In this document: positions 654-58,165 of the stretch, in pieces | Position numbering within the stretch: the stretch's first letter is position 1 | Layout: every line of letters starts with the position of its first letter | Origin: Lingula anatina | Lineage: Eukaryota; Animalia; Brachiopoda | Direction of reading: 5' to 3' | Assembly: GCA_051362555.1 (NCBI GenBank) | Contig: CM120648.1 | Span: 2,705,721-2,769,720 of the forward strand | DNA: 64,000 bases | Notes under the pieces: model-generated | What the model was told of the DNA's origin: nothing | The model's database searches: none | Seen by the model: the letters and a program-made list of their open reading frames with translations, nothing else | Made by a program: the position numbers and the translations under genes

Positions 654-3600
654 CTAGTCAGATTTGTGAGTGGACAGTTTGGCGTTCCTGCCGAACACAG
701 AGCGCACGAGCCTCGTTCCAAACGCTCCGTAGACGTAAATATCCTGACTTGGATGCCCGCCTTCGCGCAGAATCTCCAAAATGGTGACGACAACTTGCGG
801 ACCAGCACATATCACAAACTTATTTTTATGCCCATTATGGACTGGCAAATACGGTGACAAGGTAGAGCGGTCGATCAGCCCTTCCAATCCGGTCCACTTG
901 TCGTCCCCCTCGTCAACACAGAGTGCAACGTTGATGTTTTTCTTCTCCGCGGCGTACTTTGTGAGCTCATTGCGACAGAGGAGCTGTTCGATGTTGCGCG
1001 CGTGGTAGAAGACTGTCACGCGGGTGAGGTCATCAGGATTCTGCGCAATGCAGCGGACGAGTTGGATCACGGGGGTGGCTCCGATACCTGGGAAAAATTG
1101 AAGATTAGCTTGAGTCATAAACAACAACTCAAGTTTCAGATTAAGTTCCACATCCGCACGTACATTAGTCTTACTTTCTAGTCCTGGTAACTATATATTT
1201 TATTTCAAGGAGGTTGTGTTTTATCGACGTCCTATGTAGGCATAACTTATATTCATATTTACACACTTAGCAACAATTAACGTGCTATTTTGGGCACAGA
1301 ATCAGTGATTCGAAAGATTCTCTCCTATTTCAGTATGATTTACTGAAGAGTGTAACAAATAAGAGGACAAAAGTCAGCCTGTAAAATGTGTTACCCGTGG
1401 CAATCAGGACCAGGTTGTCCAGAGTTCCAGGAATATACTCAAAGCCACCACAGGGCCCGCGGCATTCCAATATGTCGCCTGGGAAATATGCAAGAAAAAA
1501 AAATCATGTACGTTGCCGTCATCAGGGTAATATTCTTACAAATGCCGCACCAAATCAATGACACAATAAGACTAATTAGTTGGCTACATTTCCGTCTCTC
1601 TTTTGTATACTGCAAGCAGTAGAAACACTTTTGTTTAAGTGATGCATGCTTCTATCAGATGTGTAGTAGGCCCCTGTCAAACTGACTGACAGACAGACAA
1701 ACTCCTACAAACATAGGCCTAATTACCTTTCTTAAGTTGCCTGAAAGCGTCGGAGATTAGACCGTGACTTTCAAGACGCATCCCCACCTCCATCACCGGG
1801 CTGTCAGGGCGGGACATGGGTGACAGGTAGCGCTCCTGTATCTTCCCCTTCACCTGAACTTTGACCTGGACATATTGTCCGGGCAGGCATCCGGTGTGGG
1901 TGGCCTGTCTTGGCAGCTGAAACAGGAAGCGCTCAACGCAATCCGTTTCTGGTATCCTCTCGAGCAAGGTCAAAGGGGCGTAGACGTCGGGATCCAGGCC
2001 TGGGCTCGTGGTGACCTTGGCTCTACGCGGAAGGCACGTGGCGAACGGGTTATCAAACTGCACGTCTTGGTTTGCGTCCAGACCGGAAGTTCCGTTCTCT
2101 TCCAGCTCCACCTCCGACAGGAGTCTCTCCGCAAGTTTTCGCTTTTCGTCCAACGTCATTTTCTTGACTTCGGCGTGGACCAAGCCTGGTTTAACCTTCT
2201 GTGCCCTGAATTGTAAGAAATCTACAGCGTTTTTTTTTTTTTTTTCGACAATTTGTTAGGCCCGATCTCCTTTTTCCACCAAAACCATTTTACTTTTTAA
2301 AAAATCATTTTCAGTAGGCTACTTTTATTAGTAAGAATTAAAATTTTGACGGCCACCTTTGACGGCAAACTTTCCACGAGGTGCTCCTGATAACATTGCA
2401 ATGTCGAACGTGGGCCATAGGCCTATAGACCTAAGTGCATTTTTGCTACAGCTAGGTTACAGGGGTATCTATAGGCTTATTATAAGGGCTACTGTAAATT
2501 CCGTTGGCATCTAAGTTCTGAAAGTAATTGCGGCGACGAGATTCAAATGTCAGTATAAAAGAAGCATCATAAACGTAATTCTGACGTAATTGTAGTGTAG
2601 TTGTGACCTTACGTGACGTCAATTCAACGTCATAATGGCGTCATAAATTGCCACCTACCACAGGTCAAACACGTCCATGCCGAGGAGAGCGGACTGACCA
2701 ACCCACTGGCGTATTACTTCATTTGTAGGACCCATCACGCTGCCAGCTTTACTGTCTCTCAGAAGGCGTTCCAACCCTGACGAGAGTGGTTAAATTGTAT
2801 TATCATGTTGAAATATTTCAGAACCAAAATATTGTAAAACAGATTTTTCTCCTTGAGATAAACTGCGATTGCCATTTGTTCTTCTTTGCGTCCAACGCAA
2901 TTATTACACTCCAAATGCTTAAGTATCGTCCGGTTTGTAGTTAAGTAATACCGTTAACTTTCCAACTAATGTTTATTCATTCATTTATTTATTTTTTTAT
3001 TCATTTATTTATTTTTTTTGGGGGGGTGGGGGGGTGGGGGGGTGGGGAGCAAATTTCAGCAAAAAAATTGAATGTGAATAAACAACCACCAAAGCCATCA
3101 AACGTGGACATGGACAAACATGGACAAAACTTGTTATCATATCCAAGTATCAAAATATTCATGTATCAACCCATGTCTGTTTTGTAGCCGGCCCCGCCGC
3201 ACGCGTGCAGCATCTTGTCGGACACCTTGGCCGCGTTTCTGGCCGCTTGGTACTTGCTCTGGAACCCCCAGTGGATGACCTGTGACCTGGAAATATGTGG
3301 GCGCTACATTAACCACATATGTTAAGTACTAGTGATATGATAGATTTAAGTAAAACTCAGTATTGAGTCCTAGGTTTATTTTAGAATTACTCAAGCCAAG
3401 AAGGTCTCCATTTGTCAGTTTATCCGTTTGTCAACAGCCTAACTCAAGACGCAATGGATAGACATTGATAAAATTTTCGGGAAAGGTCAAAAATGGGTAA
3501 AATTTAAAGTGATTGAAATTTGGTGAAGATGCATGTACGCGATCCCGATCCCCATAATTGTGAGAAAGGTCTAATGACCTTGCCCTTGTGCAATGGATCT

Positions 3601-6600
3601 TGCTTCATCTAGCACAGTATATCAGTGGGGAGCTGTCTTATTAGGAGCCGCACTGAACTCTGAGTACTTTTATAGTTCGTATACGATTTAGAACGATAGA
3701 TGGCAGCACTATCCCGTGACGCTACAGAGCTAGCTTACGTCGATCATATTGAAACCATCATAACAAAGTATATACTGAGTATGTTAAGTTGAAGGAATTT
3801 ATTTATTTATTTTACTTGAATTGAAATGAGTGTTATTCATTCCAAGGTTTCAATAGGTCCTCTTCAAATCAGATAAGCCACATGTATAGTTTTAAATAAA
3901 AGAACCTATATAATATAGGCCCTATGTAAATTGAGAACAAAATGATAAAAAATGTGATTTCCCTCAACCATGAGTCAACTTGATGGTGAAACAAACGTTT
4001 ATACTTTAGGCCTAGGCCTACCTTTGTTTGATGTCAGCATCTGTGTATTTCGTCCAGTCATTGTTGTTGGTGGCCTTGTCATAGAACCGAGCCGCGCTGT
4101 ACACTGACATGCGACAAGCATTGGTGGAAAGGACACAATCTCCAAAGTAGTCCTAAAAAGGACAAAAATGGAAAGGGATGGATAAATAGGTCCTATACTC
4201 TTCGATAGGGCCTAGACGGTTGACATTTTATGGACAGGGGCGGATCCAGAGATATTTTCTGACAGTCTTCTAAATTATCTTTGTTAATCCATCCTCCATT
4301 TTTGACCGTCTTCCGACAGAAAACATTAGATACCCGTCAATGTAAACTTAAAAATCTGACCGTCTTCCGGAAGACCCAGAAGACGGCCTAAATCCGCCCC
4401 AGATGGAGGTGTTTATATGGTTACGATCCAAAGGCTGAGTGCATGTATGAAAGCTTTAAACCTCGATATCTGTCAAAAATTTGCATGTCAAATTCGACTG
4501 GTTGTCATTTCCCATTTTCAAGCGACAAACGATTGAAAGATGTCGCATGCCAAGAATCACATAAAAAATTCGGATGTAATTGTAGATCTATGGTCTATGT
4601 GATTATATGGCCTATCTACATATCCATTCCTACCGGTATATATCAACACTCAGCATATGGTATAGTCTGCATGTAATTTTTGAATTTCTTAGGAAATGTC
4701 AACGCGTGGGCTAATAGGTGTTCTGTTTGTAACATAAAAGGAAGTACCTGGATAGTCGGGTAGTCACATACGCGCATGCCCACATCAGCATGTCTCTTAT
4801 CAGTCACGTGTTTCCGGGCTATATCAATGCACCCCATGGCAATCCCGCTCCAGCAAGCAGAAGACACCAACACGAAGTACGCCAGAACAGACTCGTCATT
4901 TAGATATGCCCCCTCACCTGAGTTTACCAAAAATTATTTTACATAATAATAATAAAAGAAGAATGATAATAATGAGCAGAAGGCGGTTACGTAGACCTCT
5001 TTTTACGTGTATGTCCTCGGCATGTGTCCTTAGTTGGTGTAACTTGTAGCCTATTTTCCGTTCACTAATTAATCGTATTTTAGACTTTCACCAATTTGGT
5101 AATAACACACAATTAATTATTATGCAGTCTTAATGGCATATCCCAACACTGACAAACCAATAATATACGGTACTTTACCGATTCTGCCAATGATCCTGTC
5201 TGGGCCTAGGATCCCCTCAGAAATCAGCATACCGGATTGGTTGCCATGTACACCAAGTCCTGACCAATCGCTGGTGTGCGCACGCACTTCGTCCTATATA
5301 TAAAGCGTTGTATACATAACACTGTGTAAACAATTGCTTTTTTCAAAAAGTATTAAAATTCAAATATTTGATTATTCTCCCGAATTTTCCAGTGTAACAG
5401 CATCTTAGAATGTATTTTTCTTCTCACTTCATCATCTTTTTGTGAAAAGCATAAAACATTCTTGATTGCAGATTTTACTAACTGTAAACTGACTTTTTCA
5501 GCGGGGAAAATACAGGGTAGTTCCAAAATGGTGACGTTAGTGGCTACTATTTGGATTGGCTGGATTTGCAAATGGATACCCTTTGAATCAAAAGTCAAGT
5601 ATTCTCGGATGAGTTCCATATTTAAGTACTAGCTTCAACATGCCCGGCCTGAGAATACTTACAAGGATTTCGGCACTGTAATACTAACTACATAGGGGAG
5701 ACCGGGGCTAGTTGGACCCCCGGGGTAAGTTGGCCCCCCATCAAGTCTCTTTAATAAAGTTACTTTAAGATGTTAAATCATTTCATTTGGACTCACTGCC
5801 CACGCTCTTAGCACTATTGGATACGGTCACTTTACAAAATGATGTGATCAATTCTTTTACCCCATAGTTACTTTGTCATACGTTGATGGGGGTCCAACTA
5901 GCCCCGGTCTCCCCTACTAACTATACCCCGGTAGAAAGTCCGCGAATATTTGCCTGATTGTACCAGTATACCAAGTAGCGAACATTTAGGCTTTATGCTC
6001 CCCATAATACTCCCGTCTCCATGGTGAAAATGCACCTTGCAAGTGTTTGTTTTCATAAAATATTCAATTCAAAATACAGGGTAGATCAAAATATGCCCAG
6101 CACGTGTGACTTACTGCAAACAGCAACATGGCCGTCATATTAGCCATGTCGTCCTTGACCCCCGGGCTCAGCGTCTCTACCACATAGAAGTCGGCAAAAC
6201 CTGCGCTGGTAGTCCATGACGAGAACTTCAGCATCTGGATATTACCGTCCGCAGTGTAGTCTGATTTGGACGAGAGGACGTACCAGAAATGGCCCCCTTA
6301 AAGTTGACATTTTCAACATATACTGGTTAGTTTTATTGCAGAAATAAGTAAAAGGTTTGCACTATCCGGATGACGCGTGAAGTGGATGAATAATGCTGCG
6401 ATTTTGAATCCTAACGTTTTCACTATCTAGAGGCAAAGGATTTTAGATACATTATGGTCATACTGTACGTACATGTAAATATCAGCCGTTTTAAAAGCGA
6501 TCTACCGGGTATGTTCAAGTACTTCAAATAGTTTTTCATTATTGAATTAAATTTCATGTAGATTTAGACAATAACAGATAAATGCTTTTTAAAAAAATAA

Positions 6601-8204
6601 ACTACCAGAATTATCTCTTGGAAGTTTTCCTGCAAACTGACACTTTGGTGAGTCATTTTGGTTGTGATTCTTTTATTTAGTCCACAATGGAGCTAAGTGA
6701 TAAAATGTATTTCGAAACTTCTAATAAGTTGCACGTACTTGAAGCATATCGGTAGTTCATTATTTTTATACGACAAATAATTACTCATAAACACAGTGCA
6801 TGCTTTTTAAAGTGCAAATGTTTTGATAAGATATGCATGCTAAAATAACTTTTTTGCGTATTTTTCCCCTAAAACTTGTAATAAACATACTTAAAGACGA
6901 ATTTGTTTAAAATTGTACGTTTTTTCCGTCTTTCTAGTTCGTGCTGTACTGACACTGATACAATGAAGTCAGGGATATTTCTCACCGGACGCCGGATCAC
7001 TGTATGAGAGCGTGCCGATCAGCTTGTCTTGATCCAGCCTACGGAGGACATCTTGGATCAGTTGGCTGTCATGGTAACGGGAGCAAAGGCCGGCGACAGC
7101 AGAAGTGTGCATGCCTGTTACAGAAATGGGGAAGTAAATATGTGTTAAGGATTGCTTGCTACCTCGTTCATATAGGCGCATGTGCGCGCCCACACACAGT
7201 CACACACACACTATCTAGAGACCAAATTAAGTGACATGTTTTGATTTAATTTTGTCAGTTTTGTTACAAGTGTGTACTAAATAGGTACTTTCTAACTGCG
7301 TCAAAACAAGATTACCTGTTGTTAAAAAAATGAAAAATCGTGCAGCATGAAAAAACATTTTACATGAAGTTGACGGGATTAATTGGATACGCACTGGGAA
7401 CTAGTGCATCTTACTGAAAACTTTTAGGCTTTGTTAATTATTTAAATTTTTGACTACATACCAACAAGGAATGAAATAACACTTACAATATACCATTGCC
7501 GTGCTAGGGCACCCATATCTCGCGATAGTCTCGACTACCATGGCAACGCACACGTGATTCTGACCACGCCCTCCCAACTCCTTGGGAACAATCAGACTGA
7601 GAAGCCCCATACGAGCCAGCGCGTCCATATTAGCTCTTGGAAACTCGTACGTCTCATCAGAAACCACCTACAAGTATATATATATAAAGACTGGCAGAAA
7701 TGAACGTATTTTTTTTATCAGTCTACGTCTCTTTTAAGTCGAGTATATTTTAGTGCGAACCTATGTTTTGCTAACAATGAATACTATGACGACAAAACCC
7801 ATTAAATGGGCTCATTTCCCTCCCTCCCTTTCACCAAAGCTTTTATTATTTATGCCAGAACCTATAATTCGACCGTCACGGAGTGTTAGCCAGCGGTATA
7901 AACCAGTGTTTCTTTGTATCTGCTGTGCTGTATGATACACATGTAGTATAATTCTGTTGCATTTTGCAAGATCATCATGTATACATTTACACGTTGTTAT
8001 CGTTCTCCATCAGCGGGCAACTTGCTTTTCATTGCCACAAAGCAGGAGTTGCTGATAATATAAGACAGCTAAAATAACTGGCCCTTCCAAATATAATATA
8101 CAACATGTCCATGTAATCGAGACAACCTGGCCAGTTTTAACAAGTATTTTAATAACAATCATTTCGGTCCATATGAATGTTTGTTAACATTCAGTCAATG
8201 CGTG

Positions 8205-8260
<56 letters not shown>

Positions 8261-11237
8261 TAAGTCAGGTCACCTGACTAAGAGCTTAATAACCAAGGTT
8301 ACATGGTCACATGGGCACATCTTACCCTATCAGGAGTAGTGTAACAGCACTCTCATGGAATCCTAGTCAACTAAGCCAGAGAATTTACTTAGTTTTTTTT
8401 TGTGTGTGAAATTGCAGCCAGGCATTGCTATTGGAATTTGTCATTTTGTCGACATGAATTGTGTCTTGGCAAATCGTATTTGAAAACTCGCTCTTTTGAA
8501 AGAATGGGATAATGGCACCATGTCAAAATGCCATTCATTTTTGATGACCCTTGCTGATATAGTCTGCATTTTATATGTAAATCTATGCATTCTTTCAGCC
8601 TTTGCTACAAGTCACCTGGATTTCAGACGGTAGTACATGTTGTGGTGCATAGGCCCTACCAAACATTAAAAGCAACATAAATCATTAGTGTTAAAATTTG
8701 ACATTCAAAATGGCGTAAGTAGCGTTTAAATGTATCCTTTATGGCATTTAAAACGCTGGAAATACCGTCAAAATGCATTCTTATGTTTAGGGTGTTAGCG
8801 TTGTTGGGATCTAGCCATCCAACCACCGCGTACAATACCGGTGGTACAATAAAGATCATACAATATGGTTCGCATATTTTTCCTGTCTGAATTCATTACA
8901 CCATCAGCCATTGCAACCACATAGATGTAAGGTGGTTGAGGTGGCGGAGGTTGACCGTCAAGATAAGTTTGTTATCAGAGATCAGAAAGGTTGAATAATG
9001 GTAGATCTATTCCTTTTCTTCACACTCCCAGGCACTTTTTTCAAATGTTTAAACAGCTGTAGACCAATACAGGTGATCATGAGTGATGACCTCACCTGGA
9101 AAAATCGTAATTTAAACACACTCGACCTTCTCATATTTCAACCCGCCAAACAGGAGCTATCTAGCAGGGTCTGGGGTTGTGAATAAGACACCAATAAAAG
9201 GATTTTCTGCTCAGTAAGTGTTCATTATATTGCAATATTTTACATAAAGAGAAGTACTGTACATAAACCTAAGCGGGAAAAGTTGTATTGGTAAATGTAT
9301 GTCTTTATGACGTACGGATCACCTTCCATAACACAACCTCTCCGTTGACATTGACGACACATTTTTGGGGACTTGTTTTTCATTTGTACAAGGACGTTGA
9401 CTTATTCAAAGTCAAAAGAATTAAATAAATGATAAATAATAAAGACTTTGTGCATGAAAACAAACCAAATCTTCACGCAAGTTAACTGTCATTACAAAAA
9501 ATCTTCTCTTAAATTATCAAAATAATGCATAACGAAAAACAGTTTGCGCTGAAAACAAACTGTATTGAAATGCAATCATAAAATCTGGCCATAAGCCTTT
9601 CACTGGGTGTGTTTCAATACCCACGGCTTAGTTATCCCAGGCGCGTTCCGTATCATTCAGTGTAGAGAAATGCCACTTAACGTGATTTTATTCATCTATG
9701 CAAATCTTTAACTTTAATATCCGTATTACGTCTATTTTTTTAACTATATAAAGTGAAATGGTTATTGCGCATGTCTTATTATCATCAGCTCGGAACATGG
9801 CAGAATGTTTTTATCGGGTGTAACCCCAGACGAAAATAACTTATACAAATTATGAGGCCATGCATTCCATACTTACATTATCTTGTGAAGGCTGATGTCA
9901 GTAGTGTGAAACAACCGGTTTTTCAGCCACATTTGTACTTTTATAAACATTTCCAGGCACGGCCCTATCACGCTTATTATCACATCCCGCATCTCAAATG
10001 AAAATGCTCTGTTAGACATCAAAATAGAGGGGAATAGGCTGTCCTGAATGGAGGCTATTCACCTGGATAACCCCATTCCCTGATGAAGATGCTCTGTAAG
10101 GCATCGAAATATTGGAGGTAAATTATTTCAATATTTATCTGTTGATTGAAGAAGAAAAAAAAATTGTTCTAGTAACTAAACAGGATTTTGTTCATGTACT
10201 TGATCTAAAATGAATGCATGTATTGGTAGATCCCCTTTGCCAAGATGTCAAGAAACGTTGACTTAAAAATGATTTTTTATTTGAATTTTACATGTTCAGC
10301 AAAACCGTTTATATCGATTGAAATGACAATAGTCAAAACCCTAGAGGCACTCTGGCAATTGTTATCATTAATATCGATAGCTGTTATATGGCTGCGAAGA
10401 TAAAAGAATAAAAACATTTTTGTATATTTTTCCATATTTTGTCCCAAATACGTTTCACGTTTTCACGGGACTGACTTTGACAACTGTCCATTTAAATTTA
10501 ACCACTTCAGAGACCCCCAGCTAATGAAATTATTCAGCACCATGAAACCGCGTGTTTCATTTTTGTTAATCTTTCCTAACGTGCTTTGTCCATTTGTCTG
10601 AAGTACACCATATATGCTTTGCTTTCGACATTTTTACCTCCGCCAAGGAGGTTATGTTTTCACCCCTGTTTTTCTGTCTGTCTGTCTGTTTGTTTGTCAT
10701 CAACATAACTCAAAAAGTTATGGACCGATTTTGATGAAATTTTCAGGGTAGGTGTGAAATGGGTTAACTTAGAAGTGATTAGTTTTTGGTGGTGATCCGG
10801 ATCAATAATCAATCAATAATCAATGATAATAAAAAATTGCTGCCTTGGCGGAGGTAGGTCTGCGCTCTCGGAGTGCTTTTCTAGTTGTTAATCTTTCTTA
10901 ACCCGCTTTGTCTATTTGTCTAAAATAAGCTGTATATATCCTTTGCCGTCGATAAAAATAAGTCTCCTGACTTAAAGTACATAAACCTGTCCTACATATA
11001 AAATTCATTGTGCGAAAAAATTATGGAACGGAATAAGAAAGAAAAAATAAACAAACTAACAAAACTAAACAAATAATAAAAAAGACTTACTGCATTAGGG
11101 CGCAAAGTGGTTCGACACAGTTCAATAAGGTCCCGCTCGATTTGCTTCTGCTCCTCAGTAAGAGTGTAGGGAGGATCGTAATCGCTGCCAACTCCCCAAA
11201 ACTGTCGCTCGCCCCACATCTTCTGCGCCGCGGCCAT
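654..11237 (-). CDS. Acyl-CoA dehydrogenase-fold protein fused to C-terminal FAD/NAD(P)-binding (cytochrome b5 reductase/FNR-type) oxidoreductase domain, 12 exons, 761 aa
   Basis: Exons (minus): 11237-11091, 7667-7487, 7114-6986, 6296-6115, 5293-5179, 4917-4748, 4152-4022, 3286-3171, 2776-2659, 2205-1727, 1478-1395, 1087-654. All introns are GT-AG, phases match, total 2286 nt with no internal stop. ACAD-like motifs: GLLSLIVPKELGGRG, ETIARYGCPSTAM, SWTTSAGFADFY, DWSGLGVHGNQSG, HACGGAGYK, LERLLRDSKAG. Reductase motifs: PGQYVQV, RYLSPMS, GLIS, RGPCG, LIATGIGATP, ICAGP. Confidence 0.9.
3392..3678 (+). mobile_element. Degenerate copy of the Helitron/Helentron-like element at 10633-10884
   Basis: Shares GCCAAGxAGG, TTTGTC..CAACAxxxTAACTCAA, AAATTTTC-GG-AAGGT and AAGTGATT blocks and a similar 3' end (CTCTGAGTACTTTTTATAGTT) with the 10.6 kb element; boundaries approximate. 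Confidence 0.5.
4235..4402. mobile_element. MITE with CAGGGGCGGAT terminal inverted repeats and 5-bp TSD (ATGGA)
   Basis: ATGGA|CAGGGGCGGATCC...ATCCGCCCCAG|ATGGA; the internal sequence recurs at 15491-15656. Confidence 0.85.
5693..5916. mobile_element. MITE with ~28-bp perfect TIR (TAGGGGAGACCGGGGCTAGTTGGACCCC), possibly pogo/Tc1-mariner-derived
   Basis: TAGGGGAGACCGGGGCTAGTTGGACCCC at 5693 and its reverse complement GGGGTCCAACTAGCCCCGGTCTCCCCTA ending at 5916; TA at both ends. Confidence 0.8.
8206..8258. repeat. poly(A) tract
   Basis: About 53 consecutive A in intron 1 of the ACAD-reductase gene. Confidence 0.95.
10051..10150 (+). ncRNA. Hammerhead-ribozyme-like motif in a dispersed repeat remnant (possibly Penelope-like element terminal repeat)
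   Basis: CTGATGA (10080-86), stem II GATGC/GCATC, GAAA (10106-09), stem III TATTGGA/TTCAATA, then TT; second copy at 45711-45810. Confidence 0.5.
10633..10884 (+). mobile_element. Non-autonomous Helitron/Helentron-like (DINE/HINE-type) element
   Basis: Subterminal inverted repeat ACCTCCGCCAAGG / CCTTGGCGGAGGT, internal (CTGT)n microsatellite, 3' hairpin GCGCTCTCGGAGTGC then TTTTCTAG, T-rich insertion site with no TSD. Confidence 0.75.
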
Positions 11238-15656: not shown

Positions 15657-16269
15657 ATATTATGTCACTACTTAAATTCGCTCTCCAACTTTACTCCATA
15701 TGTATCACATGTGTTTTATACTTTGCTCATTGCTTTTATCTTTCGTGGTAAAATCATAAAGAAATTCTTAACCTAAGCTTAAAAAAACGGATTTGAAAGA
15801 TAATTTAAAAATGGTGAATTACGAGTGTGAATGTTTGACGAAGCGGATGGTGCTCGCTATTTTATTAGTACTGTCGTGAAAACAATACTTTCAAGGTCCA
15901 TGATATTGCAGGCCTTACAGTAAGAACAGCCACTAAAATCCTTATAGATTTGAACTGATATAAACCTGCAATGGAGGTGCACTCAGCCAAACCACACGCT
16001 GGAAAAATAAACGAATACACAACTCCAGATATCTGATAGGAATGTGTTTTATTGTGGATAGGAATGTGTTTTATTGTGTAACCATTGTGGGTAGAATTGA
16101 TTTTCTGTTGCATGACGTAAAAACACCTTTCCCTACCTGCATTGACAGCTGTGTCGCAGGACTCCGTGTGCAAAAGCATTTGAGCTAATTTAGGACAAAT
16201 AAAACTCGAGTCTTTTGGTAATACTTACGGCAGAGAGGCCTACAGGTAAAGCCTGTTGAACCCGAAGCA

Positions 16270-16935
16270 ATGTGTAACTGGGGTATATTAAAGGCGGGGA
16301 TATTACTCGGCATCAGTTCTGCTGATGTTTATCTGGACTGGAAAGCACGTAGTACATTATATGAACAATATTTTGGCGAAACCCCAGAGAAAATTGACCC
16401 TCCCCCTGCTGCAGCAGTCCAAGCACTGCTGGTGTTCAACATCTTTGGTACTATATTGTACCTTTTTGAAGTTATAAACGAATGGAGTGACTGTTGGCAT
16501 TGTTGTTGTGGAGCATGTACCCCAGGCTGTTGTGACATACCATGCGAAGATTATTGCGATGACGAGTGTGGTATAAGTTGTTGTGAGGACGGTGCATGTT
16601 GCGGAGTGTGTAAAACGACGACCCCGTCTTTAATGGAGCCTCTTACTCTTCAGCTGGTGATTCTTATCCTGGAAGAATTCCCAATGTCCGTGATTTACTG
16701 GAACCTAGATTATACTACCTGTTGGCAGATGCCAGCCTCTTTGACCGGTATGGCGTCGCCCGGGGCCAGGTGGATTTGGGCAATGATTTCACGCAGAATG
16801 TGCGAAAGGGATCAGCAATGCTGGCGCAAGTGGGTTTTCTGTGTGATGTCACTACCGTTTATTGGCATCACAGTGTTCAACGTGTTGGCATGGGAAACTC
16901 TCGAACACACTCAAAAACTACACAGGTTCTGCTAA
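16270..16935 (+). CDS. Uncharacterised multi-pass membrane protein with Cys-rich loop (221 aa, single ORF)
   Basis: 666-nt ORF with ATG in GCAATG context; about 4 hydrophobic segments; 15 Cys in 40 residues between segments 2 and 3; LEEFP motif. Confidence 0.65.
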   Translation: MCNWGILKAGILLGISSADVYLDWKARSTLYEQYFGETPEKIDPPPAAAVQALLVFNIFGTILYLFEVINEWSDCWHCCCGACTPGCCDIPCEDYCDDECGISCCEDGACCGVCKTTTPSLMEPLTLQLVILILEEFPMSVIYWNLDYTTCWQMPASLTGMASPGARWIWAMISRRMCERDQQCWRKWVFCVMSLPFIGITVFNVLAWETLEHTQKLHRFC

Positions 16936-21649: not shown

Positions 21650-21717
21650 TTAGTACCAACAAAGATTATTATTATTGTTTATATTTGTAGTCAGCCGAAA
21701 AACAAACGAACATTTGC

Positions 21718-24700
21718 ATGGCTGGCGTTAAAAACTCTCCGAACAATTTGAATAGAAACGTTTCGGGAGTCGGAGTAGGGCCAGATCTCACGAAGATGAA
21801 ACCAGACATCCAACCCAGAAACAATATGAGCGTCAGTCTGCCAAATTTGGTATTGGGGTCTTCAGTCATGTCCCTCCCTCGTGTCAAGGAAGAAAAAGAA
21901 GAAGATATCCCGGTGTCAACCCCTGAAGAAGAACTGCGAGGCTTTTGTGATCACGTGGACAGCGGGTGGTCTTGGGTTGTCATGGTAGCAGGAGCAGTGG
22001 GACTCTTCCTTGGCAACGGGTACTTGTATAGTTGCGGTCAGTGATTGGTTTTACTATTTGAGCGACCACTGAAAAGAAGAGGTTATTGTTTATCATATAC
22101 TCGATATCAGAAAATATTAAGAGAGGCTTCTTAAAATATAAGTTAATAAGGTATTAAATGGATGACGATTTGTCCCACCAAAGACAAAGCTGCTTTCACG
22201 TTTAAAAATGGTTATATATTGTTCCTGTGTCTCAGTAACTCGTTGTATTCCAGGTGTGTTCTACCTACCGTTATTGGAGGATCTGGGTGAAGGGGACGTT
22301 CTCACCTCCATGGTGGGTTCTGTGTTTCTGGGACAGACAATTATATCAGGTATAAATAGCGGCGTTGCTGACCGACGCCTAAGTGACTCGGCTTAAAGCA
22401 CACAGTATAGGCTACTATAACAAAGCCTCTTCTCTGTTCTCCGTTGCACCAAACGGTTTACTGGCGCTCCATTCACCTTGCAGCAATTAGAATTGTTTTT
22501 TATTTGGTCCTCATTTCCAGGCTTCCTGGCCAGTATACTGTGTGACAAGCTGGACTGTAGGAGAGGCTGTATGATAGGAGGGCTGTTCACCGCCGCTGGT
22601 CTGGTGGGAAGTTTCTTTGCCAGCAACTGTACTCATCTCATCATATCCTTTGGGGTGTTTACAGGTGCGTTTGCAATATATAGTATGCAGGGTCGATATA
22701 AATATAAATGTATATACTCACAGATAGAGTAAGGTATATTTTCTACTGATGATTCACTGTTGACAAAATCTGATGATTTGTGCGTAACCCCTTTAGCCGC
22801 AGTCTTGGGGATTTCTATATATTCGATCATTTGCCAGAATCTGAGGCATTAAATGTGAACTGATACTTATATTCGACTGCAGTGCCCTGTATTCCACCTA
22901 ATAATTCTGTTTATTGTATGGGTGTACGTCTTTCCAGGGGTAGGCCTAGTGTTTTGTTACCAAGCGGTTCATATCAGCGTATCCCACTACTTCAGCGCCA
23001 GAAGATCCTTTGCCATTGCCATCATGCAAACCGGAGCCAGTGTGGGACAAATGGTTTGGGGACCACTGACACACTACTTCATTGACATCTACACATGGAG
23101 AGGGGCGTTTTTAATGCTCTCGGCTTCTAGTCTGCATTTAATAGCAGTTGGAGCGTTGTTACGACCCCACAGAAATGAGTACCTTCACAAGAAACAGAAA
23201 AGTGGTAGTGTCTTTGACATAAAGGTGTTTCAGAATATTCCATTTGACCTCATAGTATGTAATACCATATTGATGGCTTTGGTGATTGGGATGTTTTTCC
23301 TTCATTTTCCTGCGTATGCCGTTTACTCGGGGACATCAGTGCACGCGTCTTCGTTACTGCTTGGTGCTATTGGAATAACTGGCCTCGTTCTGAAACCACT
23401 TTTTGGCGCCGTTATGAATCACCCGGATGTGGGTATGTGGACGGTTTACAGCATATCGCAATCGGTCACTGGTGTCGTTACATTATTGTGCCCGTTATTT
23501 ATGATTACCTTTACAGGACAGTTACTTTACGCTGTTATATTTGCTGTATACCTGACGCCTTATTTCACTGGAGTTGTTGCTATAACATTGGATAGTGTAG
23601 TCCCCAAACATTATGGAGCCTCGTTGGGAATACTGTCGAGTGCTGTGGGACTTGGACATTTCTTGGGGCCTGTAATAGGAGGTACGACTCTTTTAAAGAC
23701 ATACCTTTTAATAAGCTAGGTCTAGAGGAACTGAAGAAAAAAAGACAGGCAGAAGGACATAGGGACAGACGCAAAACGGACGCACAGACGGACGGACCAA
23801 CAGATAAACGAAATGAATTGACTGAGCTCTTTACATCCCACTGAAACTGAACTATAACTTATGAAAGTGGCAGTGGCATATTATCTAATAAAGTAACTGA
23901 TTTGATTAATAGAATAACATTAGATAATAATGAATATCAAACATGTATGCAGGCATTCGGACAGGTAAACAAATGATTGGTCATTCTAAAATTTTGTTAA
24001 AAACAGCATTTTTATCATTTGACCAACACGTTTATCATTTGAAAATAGAATGCGAAGGAGAGACGTGAAATTAAATAGTATGTTTCGTGATATTTCCATG
24101 TTTTACAAACGCTCTACATCTGTACCATATGATGACGCCAGCAGCAATTTCTTGGTATGAATTCGCGTTACTTGCTGTATTATTTAGACTGGAAGCATCG
24201 GCTCAAAGTGTGATTCCATATTAGCTACTGTTTGATTTTAATTGTTTTCTTATTCCACTAAAGGTTGGACGTATAGCGTTACCGGCTCGTATGCCGCAGC
24301 CATGCAGTTTGCAGGTAAGACTAAGTGCGTGTTTAGTTCCGATGAAAAAAATATGTCATACAATAAAAAGTACAGAACCCCCTGATTATTCTCTCTCAGA
24401 TGCATGCCTTTTTTTAAAGAAAGATAATGTTGCCTTTCCATTAATTATACATGTAGAATAAATGGTCGAAATCCATAAGATATGGTAGATAAGGTTGAGA
24501 AGCATTTCAAAAACGAGTTTGTTCTCATTATATTATTTCACAGGTGGCTGTTTATTTGTTAACACCCTGATTATGTTAGCAATGAAGGTGGCGCCCACGA
24601 AGACTCTCAGTGAGGATACAGTGCAGGATAACAAACTCAATGACGTCACTTCCGGTTACCATGCCGATATCCACTCCTCATCTCATTTTACCAAAGATGC

Positions 24701-24779
24701 CGAGAAGCTTAAGGCAGCGTCTCATTCAGATATTCCTGTTAAATCGAGTAATATTCATACTTATAACCCAAGCAATTAA
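21718..24779 (+). CDS. Monocarboxylate transporter-like MFS protein (SLC16 family), copy 1
   Basis: Exons 21718(or 21796)-22036, 22254-22349, 22521-22664, 22938-23681, 24264-24314, 24544-24779; motifs DSGWSWVV, YFSARRSFA, YTWRGAFL, ALLRP, TGSY. A likely non-coding first exon ends near 20647 (G|GTGAGT). Confidence 0.92.
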
Positions 24780-25774
24780 TTGTTTTCTGTCTTATTGTGA
24801 AAACGTTGGGCGTGACCTATAAACACAAAATATATTCTTCATCAAGTGACTTAAAAATGTACATTGCTTGTGTACAGTATATACTAATAATATTAAAAAA
24901 AAGTGCCAAAGTGGGGTTTGTGCCTTATTCCCATAGATTGTAATATATCTGTGCTTCTTCTGGACTCTCAAATGAATTATATTGAAGAAGATATATCTAC
25001 GTTCCATCCACTGTGCACAAACCAAGAAATTGTGAAAATGAAACTTCTGCAAAGAAAGAGAATCGTTATAACGTGAAAGATGTTTTTCATCATCTCAGCT
25101 GAAATGTAACAAGAAATCGAACTGACGCTGTACTAATGTTTGTGCACAAATGATTAATACATGTATAACAGTTTATTTTTACTTGAGTTGGGGGTTGGGG
25201 GAGGGGTGGGCAAGATTACCCTATTGTACACAGGTTATCTGCGTTCAAGATAAAACACGAAATCAAAACTTGGTAGCCACGCGTCTTTCGTGCCCCTCCC
25301 TGCTTGTATAAAGTACAATGTAAAGCGGAAATAGGACTATATACACTGTTAAACCGAAAGCGGCACCTACGACAAAGGTAAACATCTTAATCCTCCCAGT
25401 ATGATAAGATTTGGGGCATATTTGTATCTTATTGAATAATTGCCTATACCAATGCTATATTTATACATAGGCTATATACCTGTATAAGCATCAACTGAGA
25501 TAATATAGACTAACATGTAAAACATACAGGTGGTTTAAAGCATACCACGCACTTTAGATAGGACAATCATTTTTCCTGGGAATTTCAGCGTTTTCCACCA
25601 GTTAAAATGGCCAGTATTCATAACGAGAATGACTGCCACCAACGATTTAAACCCCAGTTTACGTAACGTAGTCCATGATTTAGATATAACATACCCTGGT
25701 GAAGGGGGATGGTGAAAACATCTATAGAAATAAAAACTGCCGACTTACAGGGATAGAATCAGCTTCTATCAAGC

Positions 25775-26066
25775 AGGCCTTTCAGAATGAGAAAAGCCCA
25801 GTGCTAACTAGGCCACGGCCTAAATATGGCAGACCTAAATGAAGGGAAGATCCCTTAATCCTGTAATGGTCTCTCCGCCTCTCACACGCCTCCCCACTCG
25901 TCGGGGCACAGTAATTAAAGCTAGACTCAATTCAACCGGTCGTGGGACGACGCGTGGGGAGGCGTGTGAGAGGCAGAGATACCACTACAGGATTAAGCGA
26001 TCTTCCGTCCGTGATATTTAGGCCGTGGACTAGCTAGCACCCGGCTCTTCTCATTCTGAATGGCCT
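25775..26066. mobile_element. Fold-back MITE (near-complete palindrome), PIF/Harbinger-like family
   Basis: AGGCCTTTCAGAATGAGAA ... TTCTCATTCTGAATGGCCT with long inverted arms (CTCCGCCTCTCACACGCCTCCCCAC / GTGGGGAGGCGTGTGAGAGGCAGAG); absent from duplicate copy 1 near 20440. Confidence 0.85.
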
Positions 26067-26599
26067 CATTACCTCCCGAGATTTCAGCTTTCGATGGACT
26101 GAGGGCAGTATGCTGAGGGTGCGCGATAGAGAAAGAGTTTGTGTTTACTCGTAGCTAAAGGTCGAGAGGTGCCCAAACAGCCACGTGCATCGGCAGCTGA
26201 GGCGGAAAGGAGCCCTAACAACCACCGTCAGCTTAGGAGGGACTGGATCACAGCTCCGGGGACTGCCTTATCGGTGAGTTATTTCTAGGGGTAAATCAGG
26301 CTGCCTCGTAGGTCTTAATCTTATTTTAGGGTTTGTGTGGGCGTCTTGTTTGTGTGTGTTTGCGTGCGTGCACGTGGTTATCACCGTGTCATATAAACAT
26401 TTATGTATGTGTGTGTGTAAGCTTAGCTGAAACTAAATGGACCATAGCAGTGATGTGTGAGGGCGCAGCAAAGGAGAAGACATTCACAGCTTGATCGTGT
26501 TTTTGTCACAATAGCTTTACTTCTATATACACGTTTATATTAGAATGTTTTTCATCCCAATTGATAAAAATCTGTAACTAAACTGGCGTTATTATAAGT

Positions 26600-26888
26600 C
26601 AGGGGCTGATCCAGGATTATTTGAAGGGGGGGGGGGGGGTCGGCAGACATAAAGCCGACCCCCCCCCCCTTGCGTGAGTCTACGGGGCCCGTTGTAGAGC
26701 CCCGAAAACGTTTGGTATTTCAGAGAGCGAACGGTGTCATTCGGTATGGTTTAGAACTATAATTAAGCTAGCAAAATTCTAATTTCAAGAGGGGACCATT
26801 GGTATGATTTTTTCAGAAATCGAAGAGAGGGTCAGGATCCCCCCCCCCCCCCCCCCCCCCCCCGACACTCCCACTTAATCCGTCACTG
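26600..26888. mobile_element. MITE with CAG..CTG ends and 5-bp TSD TAAGT
   Basis: TAAGT|CAGGGGCTGATCCAGG...ATCCGTCACTG|TAAGT; empty site TATAAGTTGTAAG at 20941 in copy 1. Confidence 0.85.
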
Positions 26889-27847
26889 TAAGTTGTAAGA
26901 TAATTCCAAGATAACACTACGACCTCATGTCACTGACCTCAGCGTCCTGGCTATTACCTCAGTACATGCAAATCGGTGGTTGCCAAGATGGTCAGCTTAT
27001 ACAGTTCAGTACTGGCCACAAGCTGACCTTTCACACTCTCTGTATACACTTCAGCTACTTGCTTAAGCCATCTGTAGGGTATGCAAATAAAATCTATGCA
27101 ACTCCAGCCGGAATGTTGTGTATCCAAGTCGTGTATTCCAAACACGGTTTATATTTACACTCTGAAACAGAGCCGCTTGTCTCGCCTACTCCAGTGCAAG
27201 CGTTCAGATAAACCCATGGTACTAGCTGGATCGATTCAAGTCTGCGAGAGATTCTCCCTAATTGCAATTACTGCAATGGGCTTAAAGGTCTGACACGCCT
27301 CCTAGAGTTCTGGGGATATTTATCTAATTAACTAGCTATACTCAAGTGAATGCACGTGCACTTTAGCGAGAATCCTTAGCAGAGTTGGATCGATCTAGCC
27401 GGTTCTATGTTTGAATTTGAACGCGGTCTTAGTGTTCTCCTGGTTATATTATGTGTGATTAGGTGTTCGTTGTAGATTGGCATATTTCATTATCGAACTT
27501 AATAATGTTTAGATCATTGTCTATTTGTAATAACGCGCTATTAGATGTATTAAGTGTACGAAGTGAAGAAGTAACATTATTAATTTCTAAATTATTTGTT
27601 TTAATCATTTTTTTCCTTTTCTTTTCGTAGCCTTTTAATCATTTTTATTCACGTGCAGGGTAGTGTTGTGAAGTCTCCTGAACAAATTTTGGATTTTAGA
27701 TGCAAAATAATAATAATAATAATAATTATTATTATCTTTATATTTGTATTCAGCCGAAAAACAGGCGAACATCATTTGCCTGCTCTGGCGTTAAAAACTC
27801 TTCGAACAATTCGCAAAAGTTTCGGGAGTTGGCCAGACCTCACGAAG

Positions 27848-30800
27848 ATGAAACCAGACATCCAACCCAGACACAACATGAGCGTCAGTCTTCCAAATTT
27901 GGTATTGGGATCTTCAGTCATGTCCCTCCCTCGTGTCAAGGAAGATGAAGAAGATATCCCGGTGTCAGCTGCTGAAGAAGAACTGCGAGGCATGTGTGAT
28001 CACGTGGACAGCGGCTGGTCATGGGTTGTCATGGTGGCAGGAGCAGTGGGACTCTTCCTTTGTAACGGGTACTGGTATAGTTGCGGTCAGTGATTGGTTT
28101 TATTATTTGAACCGCAAAGAAGATGTTATTTATTATTTACTCGATATTAGAATGCATTAAGACAGTTTTATTAAAAGTTTCATTTATTAAGGCATTAAAA
28201 CGGATCACGATTTGTCCCACCAAAGCTGCTTTACATACACTATATATACACAGTGTCTCAATAACTTGCTGCATTCCAGGTGTCTTCTATCTACCATTAT
28301 TGGAAGATCTTGGTGAAGGGGACGTTCTCACGTCCATGGTGGGTTCTGTGTTTCTGGGGCAGACAATGTTATCAGGTACAAAGAGCAGCGTTGCTGATCG
28401 ACTTTTTTATATTACGGCATATGCATTTATGGCTGGGCGTTGTTATAAATATCCTTGTCACGTGAAATAGTCATATTCAGAGTTTTGTTTTTACACACAT
28501 GCAATACTGCAGATTTCTTTTCAGTTTAATCAACTTCTGAGTATTCTGGGTTGATAGTGGTATTCATAGTCAAAACGGGTAGAAAAACTCACGCTAGGTT
28601 ATCAAGCAATAAGCTCTCTGGATGTAGCATTGGATGTGAGTGAAATACAGCAATATTGGTTATTTCGTCCCTGATTCCAGGCTCCATGGCTGTGTGACAA
28701 GTATAACAAATGAAGCCCTTTCTCTGTTCTTCGTTGGACCAGGGAATTAGATCGTAGACGTCTACGATATACATGTAATTCTCTGGTTGCACCAAACTGT
28801 TAAGTGAAACAACTTTCTGGTAAACCACATGGCAACGTGGATTGCTTTTAATTTGGTTATCATTTCCAGGTTTCCTGGCCAGTATACTATGTGACAAGCT
28901 GGACTGTAGGAGAGGCTGTATGATAGGAGGGCTGTTCGCTGCCACTGGACTGGTGGGGAGTTTCTTTGCCAGCAACTGTACACATGTCATTATATCATTT
29001 GGGGTGTTTTCAGGTATGTATGGAATACGTAAGGCTATCCCATGAACCGTAGTCTTGGCTTTGTATTTTTTTTTTTTTTTGGAAAATTTGAGGCATTAAT
29101 TGTGAATAAATAGTAACGCCTCTGCTATAGTGCCGTGTTCCATCTAATTTTTCTGTTTATATTATGTTTGTTCGTCTTTCTAGGTGTAGGCCTTATGTTT
29201 TGCTACCAAGCGGTTCATAACAGCGTATCCCACTACTTCAGCGCCAAAAGATCCCTTGCCATTGCCATCATGCAAACCGGAGGCAGTATGGGACAATTAG
29301 TTTGGGGACCGCTGACACACTACTTCATTGACATCTACACATGGAGAGGGGCGTTTTTAATGCTCTCGGCTTTCAGTCTGCATTTAATAGCAGTTGGAGC
29401 GTTGTTACGACCCCACAGAAATGAGTACCTTCACAAGAAACAGAAAAGTGGTAGCGTCTTTGCAATAACTGTACTTCAGAATATTCCATTTGACCTCTTA
29501 ATATTCAATACCATATTGATGGCTTTGGTGATTGGGATGTTTTTCCTTCATTTTCCTGCGTATGTCGTTTACTCGGGGACATCAGTGCACGCGTCTTCAT
29601 TACTGCTTGGCGCTATTGGAATAACTGGCCTCGTTCTGAAACCACTTTTTGGCGCCGTTATGAATCACCCGGATGTGGATATGTGGACGGTTTACAGCAT
29701 ATCGCAATCGGTCTGTGGTGTCGTAACATTGTTGTGCCCGTTTTTTATGGTAAACTTTACAGGACAGTTAATGTATGCGGTAATATTTGCTATATACGTG
29801 ACGCCTTTCTTCACTGGAATTGTTGCTATAACATTGGAGAGTGTAGTCCCCAAACATTATGGAGCCTCGTTGGGAATACTGGCGAGTGCCGTGGGACTTG
29901 GTTATTTCTTTGGGCCAATAATAGGTGGTACGACTTTTTTCAGACACACATTTTTAAGCTAGTACTACGTGGAGTAAAGAAACAGAGAAAAAGATTACCA
30001 GACTGACAGCCAGACAGACGGACAGACTCACAGACTGCTGGACCAACGGATAAACGCAATTATTAACTGAGTAGCTCTTGCAAACGTACTAACCCACAGA
30101 ACCCTGAGTATAATAAAACAGTGACATTTTTTCATTTACTGACAAAGAAATGTATTGGTTGAATAGATAATTATGAATATAACATGTACATGTAGACAGG
30201 CATTTGGAGAGATTGAGGGGTTAGCAAATGAATAACCATTCTGTCATTCTTTGCAGTGTATTAAAACATCATCTTTATCATTTGACGATCACTTGTATTA
30301 TTTGAAAGTAGAATACAAAGGAGAAACGCGGGCAAGATTAATAGCATGGACTGTAGACCACCGTGTGTGTGTGTGGATATACATTTTCATTTGTAATATA
30401 TCATAGACGTATTCCATATTTTGAGCACTACTTTCTGTAGTTGAATTCGCGTTATTTGATGTATTTTTCAGACTGGAAGTATCGGCTAAAAGTGTGATTC
30501 CATATTAGGTGCTGTTTGTTTTCAACTGTTATCTTATTATTTTAAAGGTTGGGCGTACAGCGTTACCGGGTCGTATGCCGCAGCCATGCAGTTCGCAGGT
30601 AAGACTTTCTGTTTTGTTCCAAAAATAAAAACATATATAGAACAATAAAATAATAAAAAGAAAAACAGCGTCCTCTTTATTCTCTATCCAATGCATACGT
30701 TGTTTTTAGAAAAAACAATGATTCCATTTTTATTAGTTATAGTATTAAACATACAGGTCATCATTTATGAAAAATTAAGTTGAGAAACATTTCAAAAACG

Positions 30801-31051
30801 AAAGTCTGTTCTCATTATGCTTTTTCACAGGTGGCTGTTTATTTGTGAACACGCTGACTATGTTGGCAACGAAGGTGACGCCCACTAAGAATATCAGTGA
30901 GGATACAATGCAGGATAATAAGCTCAATGACGATACTTCCGGTTGCCATGTCAATATCCGTCCTTCTCCTCATTTTACCAAAGATGCCGAGAAGCTGAAG
31001 GCAGCGTCTCATTCAGATATTCCTGTTAAATCAAGTAATATGCATTCATAA
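27848..31051 (+). CDS. Monocarboxylate transporter-like MFS protein (SLC16 family), copy 2, ~497 aa
   Basis: Exons 27848-28085, 28280-28375, 28870-29013, 29184-29927, 30548-30598, 30831-31051; same internal exon sizes (96/144/744/51) as copy 1; frame intact. Confidence 0.92.
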
Positions 31052-31932
31052 GCCAAACGTTTAATTGTTTTGTGTCTTGTTGTGCAAAGGAAGGGCGTGT
31101 CCTATAAAGCACAGAATGTATATTTCGTCAAGTGGTTTAAAAATGTGCATTGCGTTTGAATACATATAAGAAATCTTGAAAAGAAAACCGTGTGGCGCCA
31201 GAGTCGGGGTTAGCACCTTATTCAGAAGGATTTTAACATATGTGTACTTCTTCTGGACTCTCAGATGAAGGGTTAAAATGAAGAAGATATATTAATGTTC
31301 TATCCACCAAGAATTGGTGAAAAGTATAACACATTTTGTTGTACGATTAAATATTAAACATTAAAACCAGGGACCTCCAAAATAAAGAATGTTTGTTGTG
31401 TAATTTCACACAATGTATGAAGTTACAGATGGATGTTGAGTTTATATTACAGTACGACAACCTAGCCTTTTTCTTTGTATCTTAATTTTGACGTTTGAAA
31501 TGGCATGAAATCGGTGAATTACCATTTCTAAATAATGTCTTGTTTGGAACCTGTTTTGCACGATGTTTTCAATTTCGTGGCCGATAACCATTTACGTAGA
31601 ATGAACAAAATAACCATTAATCTAAGGAAATATGTGACAAACATACGATATACGTTTATTTCATAAATATCATTATTCAAGTTATATGTTATCGATTAAT
31701 TTCACTGAAGGCATATGCGCTGAAACTATCTTACTCCCAGCCGTTGCTTGGACATAGAACTAGTCATATTTGACGTCTTTATGGTCACCTCCGGGCTACC
31801 AGTGAACACATTACTCATAGACTGACAGCTGCCCTGTGGAAACACGTCTGCCAGACCGACGGCTTAAGGCATCCGTTGTTTGTTCCAGACACAAAAGCTT
31901 TCTTACGTTACTTGATTTTCATAATAACCAAT

Positions 31933-32326
31933 TCATAGAGAATTTCTAAAATCAACATTCTCAGAGGAGCCAATGGGTTCACTCGGGCAATAATTGGCGC
32001 GGCCAGAAGTCACGTGATCCAGTTTGCCTACTTCTGCCATTTTCTCTGTGGAATTCCTGCCAGATGAAAGCTTCAACGCAAACATGACGACAGTATTGAC
32101 CAGGAGGCAACCGCCTATATGGAAAAAAATGCACGTGGTTGTTTAAGAATTATCCATTTGCCATACGTTTTTTCACTTAATGTTTAAGAATAATTTTTAA
32201 AAAGTAATGAGCATTCTCGCAATGTGTGAGTTGAAAGAGAACCCCTGCACTTGACTCAGTGGTCTTACCAGCAATCTACACGCCTGCTGCATATTTAACA
32301 TGCCTGTATATATAGACTGAAAAATA

Positions 32327-32362
<36 letters not shown>

Positions 32363-36840: not shown

Positions 36841-36918
36841 ATCAATGTAGTTGTTGACGATACTTGAAAAAGGAAACGGAAAAACATATGAATCTCTCCC
36901 TCTCTTCATCTCTCTCTT

Positions 36919-36919
<1 letters not shown>

Positions 36920-36955
<36 letters not shown>

Positions 36956-36973
36956 CTCTCTCTCTCTCTCTCT
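36920..36973. repeat. (CA)n(CT)n compound microsatellite
   Basis: Seen directly; followed by a poly-C run near 37035-37062. Confidence 0.95.
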
Positions 36974-58108: not shown

Positions 58109-58165
58109 TTATTTATTGTCATGTTTACACAGTATACGTAAAAGTAGGCCTATAAATGAAAATTA
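58059..58165 (-). mobile_element. Isolated LINE/SINE 3' tail remnant (TTTCAT...ATGACAATAAA + (TTA)n)
   Basis: Same terminal signature as the Rex1-type element at 35420-35480. Confidence 0.55.

Follow-up and report, generated by a model that had tools for sequence, protein, structure and literature searches.

The window analysed here is a 64,000-nucleotide stretch of the Lingula anatina genome (GCA_051362555.1, contig CM120648.1, positions 2,705,721 to 2,769,720). Near its start lies a minus-strand gene for a protein in which a domain of the acyl-CoA dehydrogenase (ACAD) fold is followed, in the same chain, by a complete FAD- and NAD(P)-binding reductase domain. The 12 exons, running from 11237 down to 654, splice in frame into 2286 nt encoding 761 amino acids (aa), as the sequence-only reading of this DNA had proposed. 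Every AG acceptor and GT donor is present and there is a single terminal stop. A search with exon 10 found the matching L. anatina gene LOC106177115 (protein P0001, 761 aa), to which the window product is identical at 758 of 761 positions, with three differences. GC content is about 0.55 in the exons and about 0.36 in the introns. The exons are as follows.

11091..11237, minus strand: exon 1, aa 1-49, with the start codon and an N-terminal extension common to the bacterial family; intron 1 joint in RNA (n=21 reads)
7487..7667, minus strand: exon 2, aa 50-110, the ACAD N-terminal helical domain; joints in RNA
6986..7114, minus strand: exon 3, aa 110-153, with the invariant H112 and the S148-D149-P150 flavin loop; joints in RNA
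6115..6296, minus strand: exon 4, aa 153-213, with the H155-F-W157 loop and the WTTSAG flavin-binding strand (180); intron 4 joint in RNA (n=14 reads)
5179..5293, minus strand: exon 5, aa 214-252, the middle beta domain; joints in RNA
4748..4917, minus strand: exon 6, aa 252-308, a helix with E260, F266, and W274, of which F266 and W274 track the tdm-linked bacterial clade
4022..4152, minus strand: exon 7, aa 309-352, placed by the match to P0001
3171..3286, minus strand: exon 8, aa 352-391, the ACAD C-terminal domain
2659..2776, minus strand: exon 9, aa 391-430, with VMGPTNE (404) replacing the ACAD YEGT and no catalytic Glu; S403 is W in most relatives
1727..2205, minus strand: exon 10, aa 430-590, with the last oxygenase helices, the linker, and the reductase FAD-binding barrel (RYLSPMS), and thus the fusion point; intron 9 joint in RNA (n=12 reads)
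1395..1478, minus strand: exon 11, aa 590-618, with RGPCG and the start of the NAD(P)H-binding domain; intron 11 joint in RNA (n=15 reads)
654..1087, minus strand: exon 12, aa 618-761 and the stop, with the NAD(P)H-binding domain, CAGP, and a conserved C-terminal extension of ~25 aa past the end of cytochrome b5 reductase

In RNA run X7, spliced joints have been found for seven of the 11 introns (1, 2, 3, 4, 5, 9, and 11). The check on two junctions that had been suggested from the sequence was answered in part: 2659/2205 is crossed by 12 reads, whereas no joint for 1727/1478 (intron 10) is among the X7 rows listed, nor is one for introns 6, 7, and 8. Read depth is about 5-30 in X7 and mostly <1 in X1, X4, and X5. 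Since the X7 reads differ consistently from the window (90-95% alike), they stem from a divergent individual or lineage. Short repeated elements inside the introns (4234-4400, 5690-5810, 8270-8400, 10630-10860) draw many RNA reads from elsewhere in the genome.

Exon 10 alone encodes residues 430-590, which comprise the C-terminal helices common to the stand-alone bacterial enzymes (these match residues 4-462), the linker, and most of the FAD barrel. Because parts of both domains and the linker share this exon, the fusion is not a gene-merging artefact. A merger of two adjacent genes by annotation, or a bacterial contaminant, would find some room in the four introns that have no joint among the RNA rows listed. 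However, it is contradicted by the position of the fusion point within one exon, by the 60 fused relatives among the 120 best homologs listed, and by the 11 spliceosomal introns, and is extremely improbable. It is also contradicted by the surroundings of the gene, since the neighbouring Pax gene, three major facilitator superfamily (MFS) transporters, and retroelement mark the locus as animal DNA. The fusion is virtually certain to be real, and with the domain junction inside exon 10 and 2659/2205 spliced in RNA, there is one gene here and not two.

On P0001, four Pfam domains score over their cut-offs, namely Acyl-CoA_dh_N (27-133), Acyl-CoA_dh_1 (270-420), FAD_binding_6 (515-604), and NAD_binding_1 (614-716), so that the ACAD-fold region and the complete reductase recognised in the sequence-only reading are both present. 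The motifs it had named, RYLSPMS, RGPCG, IATGIGATP, and CAGP, are located at 555, 596, 615, and 711. The linker that it had called acidic is so only mildly (6 D/E vs 3 K/R in 34 aa). Foldseek recovers the ACAD fold with TMt 0.85-0.89, and the b5 reductase fold too. A single-chain AlphaFold model built with 17 alignment rows has a pTM of 0.81 and a pLDDT of 82, and the Atlas model has a pTM of 0.58. Neither a flavin-containing monooxygenase (FMO) model nor NF058570, the model of the trimethylamine monooxygenase Tmm, is found among the Pfam matches or the 25 best NCBIfam matches of P0001, the best NCBIfam match being NF049984 (Rv1679/FadE16 family) at 188 bits against a cut-off of 600.

The reductase half shares FAD_binding_6 and NAD_binding_1, with their conserved motifs, with NADH-cytochrome b5 reductase and the FAD domain of nitrate reductase. 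The motifs R-x-x-S, G-x-x-S, T-P, and C-x-G-P are conserved across 53 fusions. It is nearest to the eukaryotic cytochrome b5 reductases, as a fragment of the family matches 2EIX with E 6e-41 vs 3e-14 or weaker for bacterial reductases, and the best solved match is the Physarum b5 reductase. Unlike b5 reductase, the Lingula domain lacks a membrane anchor, stands behind an oxygenase-like domain, and carries the conserved C-terminal extension. Position 676, which we take to be the NADH-selecting Asp, is D in the window copy and in just 2 of the 53 fusions. From residue 4 on, the N-terminus of the protein, which is not basic, aligns with the bacterial N-termini; on these grounds a mitochondrial presequence is absent, and the protein is probably cytosolic.

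The ACAD-fold half lacks the residues on which dehydrogenation depends. Base and Arg positions were mapped from alignments to ACADs, and 142 family rows were scored. The ACAD motif YEGT aligns to MGPT, the alternative-base helix position aligns to F266, and the next Arg is replaced. In 142/142 rows there is no E or D at the base positions 406 (G/A/S) and 266 (F/A/V/G/T), and the CoA-binding position 267 is R in none of them; we take this helix Arg to bind acyl-CoA. Position 406 equals the E376G site named in the titles of PDB 1EGD/1EGE. We assume, partly from those titles, that this is residue 376 in MCAD numbering, and that E376G removes the catalytic base. On the other hand, the invariant flavin-site residues H112, S148-D149-P150, H155, W157, W180, T182, M405, and E410 are retained in the window copy, and E260 is an invariant acid in the family.

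These observations bear on one of the two functions suggested from the sequence alone, an acyl-CoA dehydrogenase or enoyl-CoA reductase that is independent of electron transfer flavoprotein and exchanges electrons with NAD(P)H via the fused domain. True ACADs are the best sequence and structure matches, and the invariant E260 could be an alternative base. In structure comparisons, true ACADs give Z 47-50 with a root-mean-square deviation (rmsd) of 1.6-2.2, while the group D oxygenases TdsC, XiaF, C2, DnmZ, HsaA, and 5Z8T give Z 37-42; for the bacterial relative, VIA gives Z 49.7 and rmsd 1.6 over 374 aligned residues. Since the fold is nearer to true ACADs than to group D, the family looks like a separate derivation from dehydrogenases. 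However, the absence of both known base positions and of the CoA-binding Arg in all 142 rows makes an acyl-CoA enzyme quite improbable. The bacterial gene neighbourhoods described below speak against it as well, as flavin reductase and methylamine genes are common in the 80 loci examined, unlike those for CoA ligases, hydratases, and thiolases. In comparison with SCAD, IVD, MCAD, and Rv1679/FadE16, with which it shares the fold and most FAD-contact positions, the Lingula protein thus differs in having no catalytic Glu, CoA-binding Arg, or presequence, and in having extra N- and C-terminal segments and a fused reductase.

The other suggested function, a one-polypeptide version of a two-component flavin monooxygenase, is supported by the missing catalytic Glu and by the HpaC-type reductase gene found beside the bacterial relatives in 48 of 80 loci. 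The protein is very probably a flavin monooxygenase of some kind. The group D two-component monooxygenases (DszC/TdsC, C2-HpaH, HsaA, Dms1-3) and the ACAD-like N-oxygenases (KijD3, DnmZ, ORF36, ChmG) likewise have an ACAD fold without the catalytic Glu, and group D enzymes work with a flavin reductase partner, as the bacterial relatives of the fused family appear to. ChmG, an ACAD homolog without the catalytic glutamate, is a proved N-oxygenase, and KijD3 is likewise an ACAD-fold N-oxygenase (PMC10849742). Group D enzymes that oxidise dimethyl sulfide have been described (PMC13352529), so that both N- and S-oxygenation are known within the group D and ACAD-like oxygenases (PMC6165268, PMC10849742, PMC13352529). 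The Lingula protein is only 18-24% identical to group D members and differs from them in its fused reductase of the cytochrome b5 reductase type, its animal host, and its likely substrate, a free tertiary amine. The two separate components of group D are also the rule in the bacterial relatives, in contrast to the single polypeptide of the animal form, and natural fusions described in PMC6165268 belong to group E. By the features examined, the protein is neither an ACAD nor an FMO, and would work in a group D-like way within one chain, with a different kind of reductase.

The fusion is not peculiar to Lingula; it is a conserved family in several animal phyla, which goes beyond the sequence-only reading, as does the substrate proposed below. 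Among the 120 best homologs listed, 60 carry both the ACAD-fold and the reductase domains, most of them 45-57% identical over nearly the full length. The named carriers are decapods, stomatopods, amphipods (including Hirondellea gigas), an isopod, krill, barnacles, stony corals of four genera, Owenia, and a second Lingula gene, and additional homolog searches found the fusion in an ostracod. No named mollusc, echinoderm, insect, copepod, or chordate is among the matches listed. The remaining 60 homologs are ACAD-only proteins of 462-496 aa with 53-57% identity, bacterial where named save for one barnacle fragment. An Atlas cluster with the fused architecture has 142 members, all eukaryotic. 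No fused prokaryotic form was seen in homolog searches limited by length and word sharing, and no homologs on plasmids were found at E<=1e-40. Several paralogs per genome occur in Penaeus, Homarus, Macrobrachium, Oratosquilla, and Scylla, one of a conserved type and several diverged at the pocket positions discussed below. In present databases the fused genes are labelled 'uncharacterized', 'fadE25', 'ACAD9-like', or 'cytochrome b5 reductase 1'. A literature search that left subscription journals and supplements aside found no paper on the animal fusion or its bacterial relatives.

In a tree of 38 rows, the fused proteins form one clade (89/89), within which corals, spiralians, and crustaceans separate, and this clade is sister to the main bacterial clade (95/94). 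This pattern would fit one old origin followed by many losses. The window copy has the longest branch among the spiralian rows. An assignment of the direction of gene transfer from bacteria was set aside, as a quick tree nests the animals within bacteria while a careful tree makes them sister to the tdm clade, and bacterial monophyly is not rejected by an approximately unbiased test (p=0.56). A 659-aa fusion of an ACAD-fold domain and a cytochrome b5 reductase in the protist Rigifila ramosa (P0266, eukprot), ~25% identical in both halves and without YEGT, is probably an independent fusion of the same design.

The bacterial relatives give an indication of the substrate. The best 80 of 365 bacterial genome loci were examined; they span eight named phyla, and 46 have full flanks. 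The neighbours include tdm, the gene of trimethylamine N-oxide (TMAO) demethylase, in 51 loci, an HpaC-type flavin reductase in 48, mgsC in 28, gmaS in 17, dmmABC in 5, and tmm in 1. The reductase gene is on the same strand as the oxygenase in 47 of its 48 loci and within 300 bp in 22, and 37 of the 46 loci with full flanks include tdm. The genes in Zoogloea run in the order TMAO permease, dmm genes, ACAD-fold gene, flavin reductase, and tdm, with the ACAD-fold gene directly after dmmC; on a Rhizobium plasmid, tmm follows dmmC and so holds the place taken by the ACAD-fold gene in Zoogloea.

A similar pattern is seen across genomes. Of 50 among the 80 source genomes, 49 have tdm at 776 bits or more (38 over cut-off) and one has Tmm over cut-off. 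Even samples not picked for the gene were also scored, comprising 300 Alpha- and 319 Gammaproteobacteria, with the sample centres and one unscored genome left out. Among the 39 tdm genomes in these samples, 24 have Tmm only, 7 the ACAD-fold family only, 0 both, and 8 neither (Fisher p=4e-4, ignoring relatedness); with two centres included, one genome has both (p=1e-3, ignoring relatedness). Conversely, tdm is found in 7 of the 8 even-sample genomes with the ACAD-fold family (p=2e-8, again ignoring relatedness). Tdm requires TMAO as its substrate, and the simplest reading is that the bacterial ACAD-fold enzyme makes this substrate where Tmm is missing. The bacterial enzymes would therefore catalyse the reaction of Tmm and of the animal FMOs, which are class B enzymes of unrelated fold; the bacterial family occupies the tmm position next to tdm and dmm, and the two are almost never found together. 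The Lingula protein would be an analogue of Tmm and FMO, not a homolog.

A sister clade with ~49% identity (L096-L124, e.g. L103:5980-7927, L122:5986-8447, L123:5977-8446) has the flavin reductase, and tdm is absent from its loci. Its neighbours are an AraC regulator, a ChrR-type cupin, an aldehyde dehydrogenase, a class III aminotransferase, a cyclodeaminase, and a polyamine-type ABC transporter, and a second copy in genome G028 (L130) likewise adjoins a cupin. The sister clade is likely an oxygenase for another amine. As it combines the reductase with other amine-catabolic genes, the oxygenase-plus-reductase design seems to be general and the substrate to vary. An attempt to bracket the trimethylamine role by the sister clade failed, as its loci lack tdm.

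Some of the bacterial loci depart from the common arrangement. Cyanobacterial and Armatimonadota loci (L073, L077-L080) and those of Zoogloea (L071-L075) have shorter tdm-like genes, in which the match to the family model does not begin until about position 140. The tdm-like gene of L077-L080 is followed by an unknown protein of 163-175 aa that is not a recognisable flavin reductase. In the methylamine clusters (L041:6325-6786 and 26 other loci), mgsC is adjoined by a conserved open reading frame of ~130-150 aa without a Pfam match, which in many cases lies immediately upstream of the oxygenase.

The bacterial ACAD-fold protein encoded beside tdm (~467 aa) is 53-57% identical to the animal protein over the whole oxygenase half, belongs to the clade sister to the fusions, and has the same pocket signature. 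It differs in standing alone with an HpaC-type reductase, where the animal fusion has a cytochrome b5 reductase, and in being part of catabolism; in an animal, TMAO would be retained or excreted. The tdm-linked and sister clades are fixed for different residues at 34 positions, and here most animal rows follow the tdm clade in 19 cases, the sister clade in 5, and neither in 10. Both F266 and W274 occur in 50 of 53 fused proteins, including the window copy, and in 77 of 78 tdm-clade loci; they are absent from 9/9 sister rows and from two copies 62-65% identical that have no tdm link. Over 18 pocket positions, which were picked once the comparison had been made, four fused proteins agree throughout with the commonest pattern among the bacteria, and 17 of 53 show the tdm-clade pattern when Y265 and T270 are allowed. 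The window copy retains F266, W274, S148, and L145 of the tdm clade. By their equivalence to ACAD active-site positions, these residues would line the substrate pocket.

Based on these observations, and by analogy with the bacterial systems, we propose that the window copy is a self-sufficient group D-type flavin monooxygenase that converts trimethylamine to TMAO, with a probability of roughly 0.55. In the mechanism that we infer, NAD(P)H would reduce the FAD of the C-terminal domain by hydride transfer, and reduced flavin or electrons would pass to the ACAD-fold domain, replacing the separate HpaC-type flavin reductase of the bacterial relatives. There, reduced flavin and O2 would form a peroxyflavin, from which an oxygen atom would be transferred to the nitrogen of trimethylamine in a predicted aromatic and acidic pocket of H112, H155, W157, E260, F266, W274, and W358. 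TMAO has been measured in eggs of Cherax, Procambarus, and Macrobrachium rosenbergii, with higher levels in a hadal amphipod (PMC9511220), and there is a putative identification in Acropora (PMC6465396). The fusion is present in each of the three crustaceans whose eggs were measured.

Several observations weigh against the trimethylamine proposal. The substrate is assigned from bacterial gene context and carried over to animals at 53-62% identity, and, given the other amine-catabolic genes beside the sister clade, a link to trimethylamine does not hold for the whole bacterial clade. The window copy departs at 17 otherwise conserved sites, including W403S, D263L, P264A, N275S, and T152S, while at most of these sites the second Lingula copy agrees with the family, and the structure matches favour true ACADs over group D, as noted above. 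The mutual exclusion with Tmm is not significant in the Gammaproteobacteria sample alone (p=0.18), the Fisher tests ignore relatedness, and many of the genomes are incomplete metagenome-assembled genomes. Close homologs without tdm occur in two genomes (G090, and G046, whose copy retains F266/W274). In Virgifigura deserti (L001:7001-8401 and downstream), the only genome seen with both, the ACAD-fold gene, flavin reductase, tmm, and tdm lie in one cluster, with a second tmm elsewhere. The dimethylamine step is likewise unfilled in most genomes, as dmmC is found in 2 of 20 family genomes and 4 of 14 Tmm genomes; the dmm distribution was tried as a test of a trimethylamine against a dimethylamine role and did not separate them. 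On the animal side, crustacean FMO genes exist and TMAO synthesis has already been credited to FMO1 (PMC9511220). Freshwater and land crustaceans retain the fused gene, a poor fit to a purely osmotic role, which suggests that trimethylamine removal may be served besides osmolyte supply.

A serious though less probable alternative is a self-sufficient flavin monooxygenase acting on a different small heteroatom compound (dimethyl sulfide, dimethylamine, or some further tertiary or cyclic amine), be it family-wide or only in diverged paralogs like the window copy. It would account for W403S, D263L, and N275S in the window copy, for the variation of many crustacean paralogs at pocket positions, with 17/53 keeping the tdm-clade pattern, and for the aminotransferase, aldehyde dehydrogenase, cyclodeaminase, and polyamine-type transporter genes beside the sister clade. 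Also consistent with it are the absence of dmm from 18 of 20 family genomes and the oxidation of dimethyl sulfide by both group D enzymes and Tmm (PMC13352529). Yet the family excludes tmm while directly adjoining dmmABC in 5 loci, Tdm needs TMAO, and the window copy keeps the four tdm-clade residues, all of which speak against this alternative. The departures of the window copy, together with its long branch, could alternatively mean that it no longer oxygenates and serves solely to reduce flavin or quinones, for example for its paralog; in natural group E fusions, reductase activity can predominate (PMC6165268). This is very improbable in view of the intact and transcribed frame and the retained invariant flavin-site residues.

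In marine animals, TMAO serves as a major osmolyte and protects against pressure. A tentative extension of the trimethylamine proposal, close to an even chance, is that an ancient TMAO synthase that is not an FMO is common to corals, brachiopods, annelids, and crustaceans, and arose when a bacterial-type group D trimethylamine oxygenase was fused to a eukaryotic cytochrome b5 reductase domain before the cnidarian-bilaterian split. This would be the enzyme so far missing to account for TMAO in shrimp, krill, and hadal amphipods, and a group D monooxygenase that is self-sufficient in nature. TMAO synthesis in crustaceans has been credited to FMOs by analogy with vertebrates (PMC9511220). If the extended proposal is true, a second, unrelated TMAO enzyme, which has several copies in decapods and also occurs in krill and the hadal amphipod Hirondellea, would be a directly testable alternative to FMOs. 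In several phyla the bacterial family appears to replace Tmm, and surveys based on tmm would miss those bacteria. A natural one-chain group D-type oxygenase would also be of interest for the mechanism of flavin transfer and for biocatalysis.

The remaining features of the window are listed below. We take the Pax gene to be Pax3/7-like, and the exon fragments near the end of the window presumably belong to a sphingosine-1-phosphate lyase.

21691-34316: three MFS genes, monocarboxylate-transporter-like, two in tandem on the plus strand and one on the minus strand
35524-37068, minus strand: open frame of 514 aa with the reverse transcriptase domain of a non-LTR retroelement
40677-45681, minus strand: exons of the Pax gene, with the paired box identified by Pfam and the homeobox end read from the sequence
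58160-61469, plus strand: exon fragments, with no Pfam match on the fragments
16222-16935, plus strand: Cys-rich, membrane-like open frame of 237 aa, with no Pfam match

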